Source of the DNA: Shigella virus Moo19
Sequence record: MZ358387
Direction: 5' to 3' (one strand)
Length of the DNA: 64,000 nucleotides
Every line of letters starts with the position of its first letter. The stretch's first letter is position 1. The position numbers were made by a program, and so were the translations under genes. The notes under the pieces are model-generated. The model saw only the letters and a list, made by a program, of their open reading frames with translations. It was not told where the DNA came from and made no database searches. Shown in pieces: positions 2,759 to 54,477 of this stretch.

Positions 2759-2959
2759 ATGAAATTTTCTGATTTACTCTGGGCAATTCTATTCCTGTTA
2801 CTTACTGCCTTTATTTATGGGGTAGTACTGCCTAATGCAGTATCTGCTTCAGATAGTATAAGTGTAGTAATTGGATTGATTGTTTCTATTATGTGGCCTG
2901 TTATAGCAGGTCGTGTTGTTTACCTTATCGTTAAGAAACGGAAGAAGAAACATGCGTAA
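2759..2959 (+). CDS. small membrane protein with two predicted TM helices
   Basis: ATG 2759 downstream of terminator 2704-2731. Two hydrophobic helices ('LLWAILFLLLTAFIYGVVL', 'VVIGLIVSIMWPVIAG') and a basic tail. Overlaps the next gene by 8 nt. Confidence 0.45.
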   Translation: MKFSDLLWAILFLLLTAFIYGVVLPNAVSASDSISVVIGLIVSIMWPVIAGRVVYLIVKKRKKKHA

Positions 2960-3788
2960 ATTTATTATAGGTTGTTTACTGGCAATAGTTGCAATGGCTA
3001 GTCTTACTGGTTGTTATCAACGAGTAGAGCCAGGTAATGTAGGTATTATCGTTAACCGTTTGGGTGACGATAAGGGCGTTGACCAACAAGTAAAAGGCGT
3101 AGGCCGTTACTGGATTGGTTGGAATGAAGACCTGTATACGTTCCCGACATTCAAACAGATGAAAACCTACGACGATAAGTTTTACTTCCAACTGTCGGAC
3201 GGTACTCAAATTGGCCATCAACTGGCTATCAGCTATAAGGTCAACCCGACCAAAGTAGCGACCATCTTCCAGACCTACCGTAAAGGTGTCGATGAAATCA
3301 CTGACCAGGATTTACGTCAGCGTATTGCCGATATCCTGAACCGTCAGGGTAACCTGATTAACACTGACAAGTTCATTGACGGTGGTAAGTCACGTTTGCT
3401 GGATAGTGTAGCTGATGCAGTTAAAAAAGAGATGGAGCCAGTCGGTATCGACATTATGGCTATCTCCTGGGTAGGTGCACCGGAATACCCGGACAACGTG
3501 AAGCGTGCAATTAACGCGAAAGTTGAAGCTACCCAGAAAACCCTGCAACGTGAGCAAGAAGTGCAACAGCGTATCGCTGAAGCAAATATGGCTCGTGAGC
3601 AAGCCAAAGGTGAAGCTGATGCCGTAGTACTGAAAGCAAAAGCAGAAGCTGATGCTATTAAGCTGCGTGGTGATGCACTTCGTGAAAACCCTGGTGTAAT
3701 GGAACTGGAAGCAATCAACAAGTGGAATGGTGTATTACCAACCACAATGATTCCAGGTGCAGCCACACCATTTGTGCCTGTTAAATAA
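2952..3788 (+). CDS. SPFH/band-7 (HflC/prohibitin-like) domain lipoprotein
   Basis: ATG 2952. Signal peptide with canonical lipobox 'MRKFIIGCLLAIVAMASLTGC'. SPFH-type core followed by an Ala/Glu/Lys-rich coiled coil ('QREQEVQQRIAEANMAREQAKGEADAVVLKAKAEADAIKLRGDA'). Confidence 0.65.
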   Translation: MRKFIIGCLLAIVAMASLTGCYQRVEPGNVGIIVNRLGDDKGVDQQVKGVGRYWIGWNEDLYTFPTFKQMKTYDDKFYFQLSDGTQIGHQLAISYKVNPTKVATIFQTYRKGVDEITDQDLRQRIADILNRQGNLINTDKFIDGGKSRLLDSVADAVKKEMEPVGIDIMAISWVGAPEYPDNVKRAINAKVEATQKTLQREQEVQQRIAEANMAREQAKGEADAVVLKAKAEADAIKLRGDALRENPGVMELEAINKWNGVLPTTMIPGAATPFVPVK

Positions 3789-50502: not shown

Positions 50503-52785
50503 TTAAAGGTTCATGCCGGGACTCAATGCTGGGTCACGACTTGGGTCAAAATACTGGGAACCAATGGAAAGAGATGGGTCTTGGGGTGCAAGAGCATCAC
50601 GTTCTAATTCATTGTTCACCTGGTTGTTACCATCGGTAATTGCATTATATCCGATAGCAGCAGATATGTTAGGGGAAGTTTCGCCTTCTTTTACTGGTTG
50701 TGTCAATGCTTTAGTTACTTGAAGGTTCTGGTTACCCTGAGATTGTGCTTTTTGTTTTTCCATTTCACGAGCATGTTTAGTGCCGGATTCCTGTTCCAGA
50801 TAATCCAGATTAGTCATATCTTTCTTAGCATCTTCTGCACGAACCTTAGCTTCGTTCAATGCAATCTCAGATTGCAGCTTTTGGTTTTCCAGTTGAGCTT
50901 TCTGAATAGCCAGTTGCTTAAGTTGTTCTTCCATTGGGTCTGGTTCTGGTTTCCAGGTACGTAACTCGTGTGCCAGTTCAGGCATACGTTTAAGTTCTGC
51001 AATACGTGCAACCAGTTTAAGAGTAACTTGCTGGTCAACCGTGTTACCAATAGTCTGAACCATGAAGCCCAGGTCTTGGGATTTCTGGTTATCGACTTCA
51101 GCAGTGTTGATATCTACTTCAATATCAAAGTTGCCTTTCAGGTCTTCACGGTTAATAGTCACGTATTCCTCATTGGTAATACGAACGACTTCTGTCTCAG
51201 AAAGGAATACGGCATTCATTGCACAAATCTTTGTACCAATGTCAGCCATACCTTTTGCCAGACGACGAAGGATTGCCATCTCACGTTTAGAAGCTGCATC
51301 CAGTGCACCACGAATACCAGCAGCAACATCACCATAAGCTGAACCAGTAACACCACCTGCAAATGCCTTTACCCCGGTAAGTGCTTCTGCTTCTTGGTTC
51401 TGCATCTGAGACATTACAATTGCAGACTGAGGTAACTCAGGGAATTTATGTTCGATAATTGCCTGAGAAGGATTACCCGTCTGGGGATTGTATTCATAGT
51501 CCAGACCATCTTCGAAACGACGACGGTTAAGAGTATCCAGCATACCTTTAGGGTAAGCACGTTGACCATTGGCACTACGACCAAGTAAGTCAATCATGCC
51601 ACGCATGGTAGCACCCAGGATTTTCTGGTTATCACCTAACAGTTCTGCATCTGCTTCGCCATACAATTCACGTTTACGTGGCATATATGGAACCAGTACG
51701 AATGGTAGCTTACCATCTGGGTATGGATTCTCTTCCATACGGATAAGAGTTGTACCAATCCAGGTAGCTACAATTGGCTTAAGTTCACCGTCACCGTTAG
51801 TATCCCAGAATCCCCAGTATTCATATGCAATGACACGTTTACGCATAGCATCACGGAACTGGAAGTCACCAGGAGTTTTACTCTCATGGTCTGGGTCAGT
51901 AAGTGGGGAAGAACTTTCCCAATCAATTTTATCCAGATTGTGATAACGGTCTGGGGTCTTTAACAAATCTGCTTTACAGGTTTCGAATGAGACAACTGCA
52001 AACAGTGCTCGGTCGAGGTCACCATTACAGGACGGGTCGATAACAACGTTGTTTGGGTCGAGCATTTCAACCGTTGGCCTGTTAACCACAGCCTTCTCGA
52101 CTTCAACTTCCGTAGTACCCGTCTGGATAGCATAAGTAGCTTCACCCGTTTCATTGAAATAGTTAACAGCTTCCTTAACGTCATCTGCTACTTGTTCCTC
52201 ATATCCACGGGGGTTTTGTGCCTGAAGGTCTAAGGCTTGTTGCAGAATCTGAACTTGTTCTTCTGTTTCAACAGGGTACATCTGGAAGACAGGGGCGTCC
52301 TGTTTAACCTTAACTACCTTGCGTTCCCAACCAACACGAGCAATGCCAGTACCGTCATCGCAGACAGAGTGAACGTAATCATCCACCAGCTTCACACGGT
52401 TAAGCTGAGTACGGAACTGGTAATTAAGTACAAGTTCGTTCTGACGTGCAGCTTGTTCATCTTCCCAGGTAACCGGGGTAAGTTTGAATAACTTAGGGGA
52501 TGACAGAAACGGCTCAGACAATGGGGCATAACGCCACTCTGCCTGACGTCGAACCAGTTTAGGCTGGACCTGGGAACGGCCTTTTACCTTTGGGGGCTTA
52601 GCCGAACCTTCTGCTTTCATGAGGTCATTCCATTTCTGGATTTCTTTCATGATTGCATCATGGGCTGGTTTACCTGCTTCAAGGTCAGCCTTCAGTGTCT
52701 GAATACTTGGCTCTTTCTTCCAGTTAGTCAGCTTATCTGATTGCCCTGGGTCTGGAAGAGGAGTCATAGAATCTTGATGTTCCAT
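50503..52785 (-). CDS. portal protein (N4 gp59-like)
   Basis: 760 aa (N4 portal about 763 aa as I recall); position between lysis cassette and scaffold/capsid genes. Confidence 0.6.
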
Positions 52786-52793
52786 AGTAATTC

Positions 52794-53294
52794 CTATTGT
52801 AAAAGTTTCCGGTCGGCCTTGATTTGGTTCCCCAACTCAATCAATTGGTTGTCACGGAGTCTAACAGTTGCCCTGAGTTCTTCAACCACTCGTCTGCCTT
52901 GTTCAAGACTGGAGTCGAGTTCGGCTGCATGGCTTGCAAGACTTCTGCACTCAAAGGTTCCGGCTTCGGCTTGACGTTTATATACGTCGGCTCTTTTGCT
53001 TGATTGCTGCATCCGGCTGTCGTAATCACTGCTAAGGCGAGCAAGCTCGCCTGCGTAATTACTCTCAGCCGTCTGCAATCTGGTAGTGAGCATACCGACT
53101 TCATAGCTGTGTTGTCTGTTAAGGACATCGTATTCACCCTTAAGTTTATTGTAGGCTTTCTGGTCTTCTACTTTCTGAGCATCCCACTTGGCCTGAACTT
53201 TATCCTGACCATTACTGGAACCCCAAAAGTAAATGGTGGCTCCCAAAGCCACCACTACCAGATAAGGCCAACCTTTAGAGATTAGCGTCATCAT
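52794..53294 (-). CDS. i-spanin (Rz-like)
   Basis: GGAGG RBS then ATG 53294. N-terminal TM '[17 protein letters not shown]' followed by a coiled coil. Confidence 0.55.
52841..53128 (-). CDS. o-spanin (Rz1-like lipoprotein) embedded in the i-spanin gene in another frame
   Basis: Hydrophobic signal '[14 protein letters not shown]' with lipobox Cys, then a Pro-rich mature part ('[11 protein letters not shown]...'). Start uncertain (53128 or 53104). Confidence 0.5.
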   Translation of the reverse strand: MSLTDNTAMKSVCSLPDCRRLRVITQASLLALAVITTAGCSNQAKEPTYINVKPKPEPLSAEVLQAMQPNSTPVLNKADEWLKNSGQLLDSVTTN

Positions 53295-53910
53295 TACATG
53301 CCTCCAGAGGCACATTACCAATACGGTTTGATATCCAGCCATACGTATAGTCAGGCATGTTTAACGAGGTGTAGTGATTAAGTTGTTTACCATCCAATAG
53401 CTTAATCATAGTCTTACAGGCTTCTACTTTGCCTCGTTTTTTCTGGAGTGCCCTATACGAGTTAATGGTTGCTGTACCAACTTTACCATCAACTTGTATT
53501 TTAGGGTAGTCTTTGCCATTACGACTAACGTCATTCAAAGACTCTTGAAGCCAACGTGCTGGACGTGGTGTCCCAGTGTTTACTCCAGCATCCACCAGCT
53601 TGTGGGTCACAGCAGGACTAATAGAAGCGAACTCAATAAAGTTTGGCTTGATAATGTAGTCATCAACATAAACTTCAGCAGCCATCTCTTTAGTAAGTCC
53701 TTTCATAGTCCCATCCCATCCGTATTTCTTTGCTAAGACTTCCTTGTGGGACTGGGCTACTTTCTTAGTTATCCCGTGATTAGTTTCCCCTCCTGGGTCT
53801 TTGGGGTCATTTACATAACCACCTTCCAGCATAAAAACGGAACCAAGAATGGCAGCAACTACTGCTCCCACTGCACCACCCCTGGTTGCTAGTTTTTTAT
53901 TTATTGCCAT
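53275..53910 (-). CDS. SAR endolysin, GH108-type N-acetylmuramidase
   Basis: AGAGGAGG RBS then ATG 53910. N-terminal Gly/Ala-rich weak TM 'GGAVGAVVAAILGSVFML' followed by 'EGGYVNDPKDPGGETNHGIT'. Confidence 0.7.
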   Translation of the reverse strand: MAINKKLATRGGAVGAVVAAILGSVFMLEGGYVNDPKDPGGETNHGITKKVAQSHKEVLAKKYGWDGTMKGLTKEMAAEVYVDDYIIKPNFIEFASISPAVTHKLVDAGVNTGTPRPARWLQESLNDVSRNGKDYPKIQVDGKVGTATINSYRALQKKRGKVEACKTMIKLLDGKQLNHYTSLNMPDYTYGWISNRIGNVPLEACNDDANL

Positions 53911-54163
53911 GATAGTCCTCCTCTTTAGGCTTTAAACGAATAAGCCTGCCAACGATGTTCAAGGCAAATAAGCCAATGGCAACACCTGAACCATGTGGAA
54001 TCTGGTCAAGCAGATGTCTTGGCAAACCTGAGAACATTGGCTGGATTATATCGACGGCAGAGAAGAGAATCAGACCAATAGTACTAATCTGGATAGAAGC
54101 CCATTTCCAGGCTCGTTTCCAGTTAGGTACTAGTTCAACCCTTTTGGTTAACCTGCGAACCAT
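53897..54163 (-). CDS. holin (two TM helices; pinholin candidate)
   Basis: TAAGGAGA RBS then ATG 54163. Two hydrophobic helices and a charged C-terminus; overlaps the endolysin start by 14 nt. Confidence 0.5.
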   Translation of the reverse strand: MVRRLTKRVELVPNWKRAWKWASIQISTIGLILFSAVDIIQPMFSGLPRHLLDQIPHGSGVAIGLFALNIVGRLIRLKPKEEDYHGNK

Positions 54164-54477
54164 GCGAAAATCTCCTTACGTGCTGCAACCAACAGACTTA
54201 AGATTGCACCTGCTGCTGCCCATACCCACTTACCAAAGATTCCTGCACCAACTACCTTGTGCTTAATGGTAATGAACTCTTCGATGGTAGGCTCATTTTT
54301 AGCAAGACTCTCTTCAACATTCTTAAGTCTGTTACTAACTTCAGCAACTGAGTCCTTAAGATTGGTGATGGAGTTTTCCAGCTTTGCTCGGTCATTCCTT
54401 TCACGTTCCTGGTTCTCGAACATGGTTTTAAATCGTTCCTCCAGTCGAGCCAGTAATACATCAGTGGGTTCAGACAT
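54148..54477 (-). CDS. C-terminally membrane-anchored coiled-coil protein (antiholin/lysis-regulator candidate)
   Basis: Cytoplasmic coiled coil then one C-terminal TM 'VVGAGIFGKWVWAAAGAILSLLVAA'. Start at ATG 54477; ORF-track start 54507 is GTG. Confidence 0.35.
   Translation of the reverse strand: MSEPTDVLLARLEERFKTMFENQERERNDRAKLENSITNLKDSVAEVSNRLKNVEESLAKNEPTIEEFITIKHKVVGAGIFGKWVWAAAGAILSLLVAARKEIFAWFAG

Follow-up and report, generated by a model that had tools for sequence, protein, structure and literature searches.

Evidence for an embedded two-component spanin of the N4 family in the lysis cassette of Shigella virus Moo19

Does the short gene at positions 52794–53294, on the minus strand of the Shigella virus Moo19 sequence (record MZ358387), encode one lysis protein or two? 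The stretch analysed here, 64,000 nucleotides (nt) long and hereafter called the window, had received a first-pass annotation made from its letters. It proposed that this gene specifies the inner-membrane subunit of a spanin (i-spanin) and that a lipoprotein partner, the outer-membrane subunit (o-spanin), is encoded entirely within it in another reading frame. Our analysis leaves little doubt that the region is a two-component spanin of embedded architecture, belonging to an N4-like podophage (Schitoviridae, Enquatrovirinae). What was observed comprises the anatomy of the two genes, their homology to a described family, a conserved arrangement and, for each of the two frames, purifying selection.

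The enclosing open reading frame (ORF) in the mechanical listing extended from 52794 to 53342 on the minus strand and would specify 182 amino acids (aa). The i-spanin coding sequence, a homologue of N4 gp60, occupied 52794–53294 within it, with 166 aa plus the stop codon, as the first-pass annotation had placed it. The true start is ATG 53294: a Shine-Dalgarno (SD) sequence, GGAGG at 53301–53305, was found 6 nt upstream within the 3' end of the endolysin gene, with a duplex energy of -9.3 kcal/mol against the anti-SD. Two upstream candidates were rejected. ATG 53342 had no SD visible by eye, and the 182-aa form starting there is not conserved, since a stop codon interrupts this frame in the Gamaleyavirus relatives, 8–12 codons 5' of the aligned methionine. 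ATG 53315 was preceded by an SD of just -2.8 kcal/mol, not comparable to that of ATG 53294.

The N-terminal transmembrane (TM) segment announced in the first-pass annotation was recovered at residues ~9–25 (53220–53270), where the hydropathy maximum fell in an N-terminal 17-mer and overlapped helix 10–22 of an AlphaFold2 (AF2) model. The 140 residues that follow contained a single Cys and no Pro. In the AF2 model, built from a single sequence with a mean predicted local distance difference test (pLDDT) score of 75 and a predicted TM-score (pTM) of 0.42, the chain formed helices 10–22, 27–110 and 116–165, with a break at residues 111–115. The i-spanin is thus predicted to be a type-II inner-membrane protein, anchored by a single TM helix near its N-terminus and continuing in the periplasm as two long helices; one TM domain (TMD) with a largely helical periplasmic part is the combination typical of embedded spanins (Summer 2007; Kongari 2018). 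Its sole periplasmic Cys, C116 (codon 52947–52949), opens the second long helix, directly after the inter-helix break, and is a candidate for a homodimer disulfide; a Cys stood in this column in 37 of the 51 distinct relatives described below.

The inner ORF was listed at 52841–53137 (98 codons, maximal from GTG 53137) in a frame different from that of the i-spanin. This +1 frame was open for 108 codons, versus 20 for the +2 frame. The o-spanin precursor ORF was placed at 52841–53128, giving 95 aa from ATG 53128 or 87 aa from ATG 53104. Its stop codon (52841–52843) lies 47 nt ahead of the i-spanin stop and the inner ORF is therefore fully embedded, in agreement with what had been claimed. The lipoprotein string quoted in the first-pass annotation was present exactly in the +1 frame, and a pattern of the PROSITE PS51257 type matched ...ALAVITTAG followed by C. 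The lipobox T-A-G-C covered 53009–53020 with the Cys codon at 53009–53011; cleavage is predicted between TAG and C, so that the mature protein would begin C-SNQAKEP with Ser at +2, a residue compatible with outer-membrane sorting. The mature o-spanin (52844–53011, 56 aa), delimited by length and composition, by alignment of homologues and by the wobble suppression reported below, had 6 Pro (10.7%) without any proline run, and the lipidated Cys was its only one. The earlier description of a Pro-rich mature part is only moderately apt when set against the 25% of lambda Rz1.

The two products were assigned by similarity. The i-spanin matched the profile phrog_6197 ("Rz-like spanin") over its full length (residues 1–166, E = 1.6e-72) and N4 gp60 in BLASTP with 58% identity over 164 aa (E = 9e-65). 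The mature o-spanin was 74% identical to N4 gp60a (E = 1e-30), and similarity to the N4 spanin family was therefore found for both subunits. No Pfam, PHROG or NCBIfam model matched the o-spanin in profile searches, and for this reason its assignment rests on pairwise and multiple alignment. A second profile with the label "Rz-like spanin", phrog_20026 (74 positions), matched residues 95–165 of the i-spanin frame (E = 1.5e-41) and not the o-spanin; it looks as if it had been built from truncated i-frame ORF calls. The comparison with curated spanin sets, which had been recommended as a check, led to the family "N4 (12)", which Kongari et al. 2018 (PMC6139136) list twice, once with the embedded families of i-spanins and once with those of o-spanins. 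Its members are N4, G7C, Bp4, EC1-UPM, ECBP1, pSb-1, PhAPEC5, PhAPEC7, JWAlpha, JWDelta, RG-2014 and EamP-S6 (PMC6139136). By these similarities the window pair is an orthologue of this catalogued family, the type member of which has been functionally tested.

Conservation was evaluated on 81 loci from GenBank phages and IMG/VR, that is 82 sequences including the window. The o-spanin core motif was detected in 68 of the 82 sequences, and each of these 68 carried it within the enclosing ORF and in its +1 frame; the loci yielded 51 distinct sequences. Loss of the embedded frame in relatives, or lack of a lipoprotein signal, had been named beforehand as what would speak against the proposal, and neither was observed. 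The +1 frame, the lipobox Cys and a mature part of 53–63 aa were kept in 51 of 51 distinct relatives, the hosts of which range from Enterobacteria to Burkholderiales and Xanthomonadales. The i-spanin alignment of the 51 sequences was gap-free from residue 27 to the C-terminal region. In an alignment of 13 diverse o-spanin homologues the mean column identity was 68%, and the window protein carried the conserved residue in all 13 invariant columns.

In this overlap the wobble position of the i-frame is the second codon position of the o-frame, and the diversity of each codon position over the 51 distinct sequences is consequently informative. In the region that codes for the i-spanin only, the wobble diversity was 0.64. 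It fell to 0.20 across the mature o-spanin (i-codons 114–150), under the value of the i-frame first position (0.29), and returned to 0.60 in the 14 codons past the o-spanin stop. The suppression started near i-codon 83, which corresponds to the hydrophobic core (h-region) of the o-spanin signal peptide. A drop so sharply bounded is the mark left by purifying selection acting on a second frame. A similar picture emerged at the DNA level. In phages of Achromobacter, Pseudomonas, Stenotrophomonas, Burkholderia, Xanthomonas, Erwinia and Delftia, blastn detected only the dual-coded part of the query (~290–540), with 68–83% identity; the match corresponded to window positions 52803–53053 and to parts of loci L018–L025, and the rest of the spanin gene was beyond DNA-level recognition in these Schitoviridae of distant hosts. 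The confinement of the match to the dual-coded part is explained by the purifying selection on the second frame. Across Schitoviridae, DNA comparison thus still recognises nothing of the gene but the ~170 nt shared by the mature o-spanin and the second helix of the i-spanin.

The first-pass annotation had considered the o-spanin start uncertain, and rightly so: the GenBank records of close relatives give four lengths (123, 95, 87 and 85 aa), and within Gamaleyavirus G7C, St11Ph5 and Mimir124 disagree among 123, 95 and 85 aa. The mature o-spanin is identical whichever start is used. ATG 53128 (-39, a 39-aa signal) was preceded at 8 nt by an SD-like AAGGGTG (53135–53141, -5.0 kcal/mol). All of the 21 Enquatrovirinae-like sequences had an ATG at -39 or -40 in spite of differing i-frame residues over it (DV, NA, DA), and its SD reached -4.0 to -5.0 kcal/mol in every Gamaleyavirus-like and KP8-like relative; the value was just -2.4 kcal/mol in N4 and AlfredRasser. 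The other candidate, ATG 53104, is located at -31 and gives a 31-aa signal. Both ATGs could be changed to ACG silently in the i-frame, T53127C keeping Asp and T53103C keeping Tyr. Outside Enquatrovirinae the start of most members was an ATG or GTG at -24 or, in some, at -20; in most cases its SD scored between -4 and -8.8 kcal/mol, and the signal is a normal one. The -24 start was absent from the window and from the 20 other Enquatrovirinae-like sequences. The codon-position diversity is unable to separate -39 from -31 because the n-regions of the signal are unconstrained.

On balance ATG 53128 has a slightly better than even chance of being the start, and to initiation at ATG 53104 we give distinctly less than an even chance. 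The PROSITE PS51257 pattern carries side conditions: the Cys should lie inside residues 15–35 and a basic residue should be near the N-terminus. The product of ATG 53104 agrees with both (Cys at residue 32, Lys at residue 2) and that of ATG 53128 does not; the annotation of AlfredRasser (N4) takes the equivalent ATG, which in N4 has the best SD among the candidates (-4.3 kcal/mol). Moreover, there was no protein-level wobble constraint upstream of about -15, so the stretch from -39 to -32 need not be translated. Against this start, no SD was found before it in the window (+0.4 kcal/mol) or in the Gamaleyavirus relatives (-0.9 kcal/mol), and the codon is ACG in ECBP1, in one IMG/VR relative and in the KP8 group, which are thereby left with the -39/-40 ATG as their only canonical start. 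The presence of that ATG in all 21 sequences, with its stronger SD in the Gamaleyavirus-like and KP8-like ones, points the same way. We consider it improbable that initiation takes place at a non-canonical codon near the hydrophobic core, for instance CTG 53068, the upstream open stretch then being untranslated. Such a product would resemble a canonical signal of the length found in lambda Rz1 (19 aa; PMC5295617), and a short signal is the family norm, as judged from the -24 and -20 starts with good SD of other Schitoviridae and from an extra ATG at -15 in N4. No SD-like sequence was seen by eye ahead of CTG 53068 or ATT 53059, however, and TTG at -11, the sole canonical codon close to the core, would leave the signal without a charged n-region. 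CTG and ATT starts are also rare in Escherichia coli phages.

The difficulty with the start is one of several points that weigh against the spanin interpretation of the locus. Neither candidate gives a textbook lipoprotein signal: the 39-aa signal puts the Cys at residue 40 with no Lys or Arg among its first seven residues, and the 31-aa signal begins at the ATG that is devoid of an SD and replaced by ACG in some relatives. To these are added the o-spanin's lack of a match in the three profile libraries, the origin of the AF2 i-spanin model in one sequence with the scores given above, and the outcome of a chance test. Among 20,000 synonymous-codon shuffles of the i-spanin, 4% still gave a lipobox with an upstream ATG and a mature protein of at least 25 aa (p~0.04), and 6.5% left 108 or more consecutive codons open; in the six frames of the window, 6 candidates of the lipobox type were counted. 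These figures would suit the view that the inner ORF is merely permitted by the i-spanin sequence and unexpressed, the outer protein acting alone or with a partner encoded elsewhere. The shuffling null is conservative because two of the three +1-frame bases stay fixed, and the test is weak because the overlap itself shapes the i-spanin protein sequence. The single-sequence case for the o-spanin is thus modest, and the comparative evidence is decisive. A frame open by accident does not agree with the retention of the frame, of the lipobox Cys and of a 53–63-aa mature part in all distinct relatives across such distant hosts, with a threefold drop of wobble diversity across i-codons 114–150 that recovers within 14 codons past the stop, or with the fact that a clone of the homologous N4 gp60, which includes gp60a, restores spanin function (PMC12642591). 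The chance explanation is accordingly very improbable, and the embedded two-component spanin is retained.

How might the two proteins act? Lipidation, outer-membrane sorting, complex formation and membrane fusion are attributed here by homology, from the complementation obtained with N4 gp60/gp60a and from the lambda Rz/Rz1 paradigm. The i-spanin would sit in the inner membrane with its N-terminus inside and its C-terminus outside. The o-spanin would be exported and cut between TAG and C, its Cys being lipidated; as the +2 residue is Ser, Lol would be expected to take it to the inner leaflet of the outer membrane. Contacts between the C-terminal parts of the two subunits would yield a complex that passes through the peptidoglycan mesh and spans the periplasm. 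Degradation of the wall by the endolysin encoded upstream, which appears to be of the signal-anchor-release (SAR) type, would then free the complexes, and the freed complexes could fuse the inner and outer membranes, thus removing the last barrier to phage release.

The genomic context fits such a role. The order on the minus strand was a gp63-like gene, a gp62-like gene, an endolysin with GH108 and PG_binding_3 domains, the spanins and the portal gene, matching N4, G7C, St11Ph5 and others; the spanin pair therefore lies directly downstream of the GH108 endolysin, within a lysis cassette. The endolysin gene, homologous to N4 gp61, was located at 53275–53910 (Pfam Glyco_hydro_108, 3.4e-20; PG_binding_3, 6.3e-8; phrog_315 endolysin), and its 3' end extends 20 nt into the i-spanin gene. 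Its N-terminus, MAINKKLATRGGAVGAVVAAILGSVFMLEGG, was weakly hydrophobic and rich in Gly and Ala, with charges on both sides and a hydropathy peak at GAVGAVVAAILGSVFML; the segment is SAR-like, as in N4 gp61, which was experimentally shown to be a SAR endolysin (PMC12642591). The gene at 53897–54163, syntenic with N4 gp62, would specify a protein with two TMDs that is usually annotated "holin" (phrog_1356 holin, 3.2e-28; Pfam DUF7940). The gp63-like gene at 54148–54477, syntenic with N4 gp63, encodes a predicted coiled coil and a C-terminal TMD (phrog_5211, 3.1e-47, residues 11–119); the ORF was open from 54507, and homology began at Met-11. The portal gene, so called in the syntenic relatives, followed the spanins at 50503–52785 on the same strand.

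In many GenBank relatives the gp63 homologue was found to be labelled "tail length tape-measure protein" or "hypothetical". A 2025 preprint on N4 identifies gp63 as the pinholin and gp62 as a non-essential lysis regulator (PMC12642591). As these assignments reverse the roles, the database labels of gp62- and gp63-type genes are probably wrong in many records.

By megablast the window belonged to an N4-like podophage, with ~77% identity over 74% of 24 kb (40000–64000) to Gamaleyavirus. The best matches to this segment in the phage collection were Bp4, PE007 and PhAPEC5, all Gamaleyavirus; two further collection records showed 95–99% identity to it, presumably across short stretches only. Since no collection record went beyond ~77% identity over 74% of the segment, the source phage forms a distinct lineage, possibly outside the current Gamaleyavirus species. 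The sole other convincing lipoprotein in the window was a 278-aa ORF at 2952–3788 on the plus strand, with a textbook signal (MRKFIIGCLLAIVAMASLTG, then C) ahead of an SPFH/Band_7 domain (Pfam, 1.2e-22). As for its role in an N4-like phage, one can only guess at superinfection exclusion or membrane remodelling.

The importance of this spanin pair lies mainly in annotation. Embedded o-spanin genes are usually missed by automatic gene callers, many GenBank relatives carry just one "Rz-like spanin", and where records do include the inner gene, they place its start differently; the feature at 52841–53128 (or from 53104) consequently needs to be annotated by hand. Only two points are mildly new. 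One is that the N4 spanin family offers a clean example of dual-coding constraint, which changes no biological principle. The other concerns the long signal. We propose, as a hypothesis whose probability falls somewhat short of even, that Enquatrovirinae (N4, Gamaleyavirus, the KP8 group and the window phage) lost the SD-preceded start at -24 and initiate the o-spanin in every member at the ATG that yields a signal of 39–40 aa. If it holds, few phage lipoproteins would carry a longer signal peptide, and the long unconstrained n-region might set the amount or speed of o-spanin export.

Among the described systems, N4 itself is the functional reference. In N4 gp60 a TMD at the N-terminus is followed by 140 residues in the periplasm, the mature form of gp60a is a lipoprotein of 56 residues, and lambda Rz-am Rz1-am lysogens regain the ability to disrupt the outer membrane when both are supplied (PMC12642591). 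The window pair shares with them the position in the cassette, the +1-frame embedding and the 47 nt of i-spanin gene past the o-spanin stop, as well as both the 140-residue periplasmic domain and the 56-residue mature lipoprotein, and the single Cys of the i-spanin falls in the same column. The differences are concentrated upstream. The N-terminal half of the i-spanin was far less conserved between the two phages than the dual-coded half, the signal-peptide region was fully diverged (N4 having KSLMKSLLILLLTSTIVGC), and the additional N4 ATG at -15, which gives a short canonical signal, is absent from the window.

The nearest relatives were the Gamaleyavirus spanins (G7C gp60/gp60', St11Ph5 gp60.2/gp60.1 and Mimir124), with 82–84% DNA identity over the spanin gene and 78–83% identity for the i-spanin protein. 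The h-region and the lipobox were near-identical, and both the -39 and the -31 ATGs were present in most Gamaleyavirus, whereas the eight residues after the lipid Cys differed (SNQAKEPT in the window, NSLKDEHR in Gamaleyavirus). The embedded partner is annotated in G7C (gp60'), St11Ph5 (gp60.1), AlfredRasser, Mimir124, Piffle and Holyagarpour.

The first-pass annotation had spoken of the classic embedded Rz/Rz1 arrangement. The architecture does correspond: as in lambda, the o-spanin is wholly inside the i-spanin gene in the +1 frame, the pair comes last in the lysis cassette, and the plan is that of an inner subunit with TMD, helix, linker and helix and of a small lipoprotein with a residue other than Asp at +2. 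A TM anchor followed by two long helices with a short break is the layout described for lambda Rz (PMC5295617), and members of the N4 family can replace lambda Rz/Rz1 functionally (PMC12642591). The sequences belong elsewhere. No match of the window pair to Pfam Rz or Rz1 was obtained, the i-spanin reaching just a sub-threshold 18.8 bits with DUF2570 (cut-off 26.6), and the other lambda-type PHROG matches were weak. The mature o-spanin counts 6 Pro among its 56 aa and lacks a penta-proline stretch, whereas lambda Rz1 has 40 aa with 10 Pro (25%; PMC5295617). There is no free Cys in the window o-spanin and one in the i-spanin, compared with C29 in Rz1 and C99 and C152 in Rz (PMC5295617); the Pro-rich or penta-proline region and the free o-spanin Cys characteristic of lambda Rz1 are thus both missing. 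The signal is also longer, 31–39 aa versus 19 aa in lambda Rz1 (PMC5295617).

Lambda Rz/Rz1 require covalent homodimerisation (PMC5295617). In 8 of the 51 distinct relatives (loci L019, L044, L046, L055, L056, L060, L063 and L076) neither subunit had a periplasmic Cys, and disulfide-linked homodimerisation is therefore inapplicable to these pairs; it may be that covalent homodimerisation is not general in the N4 spanin family. A more distant comparison is offered by the unimolecular spanins (u-spanins) of the T1 gp11 type, which share with the window pair the role in outer-membrane disruption and a lipoprotein N-terminus. They combine the lipobox N-terminus and a C-terminal TMD on one polypeptide, whereas the window phage uses two proteins in two frames. 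The Moo19 pair is analogous to lambda Rz/Rz1, no sequence homology to that pair being detected, and belongs to the separate N4 spanin family.

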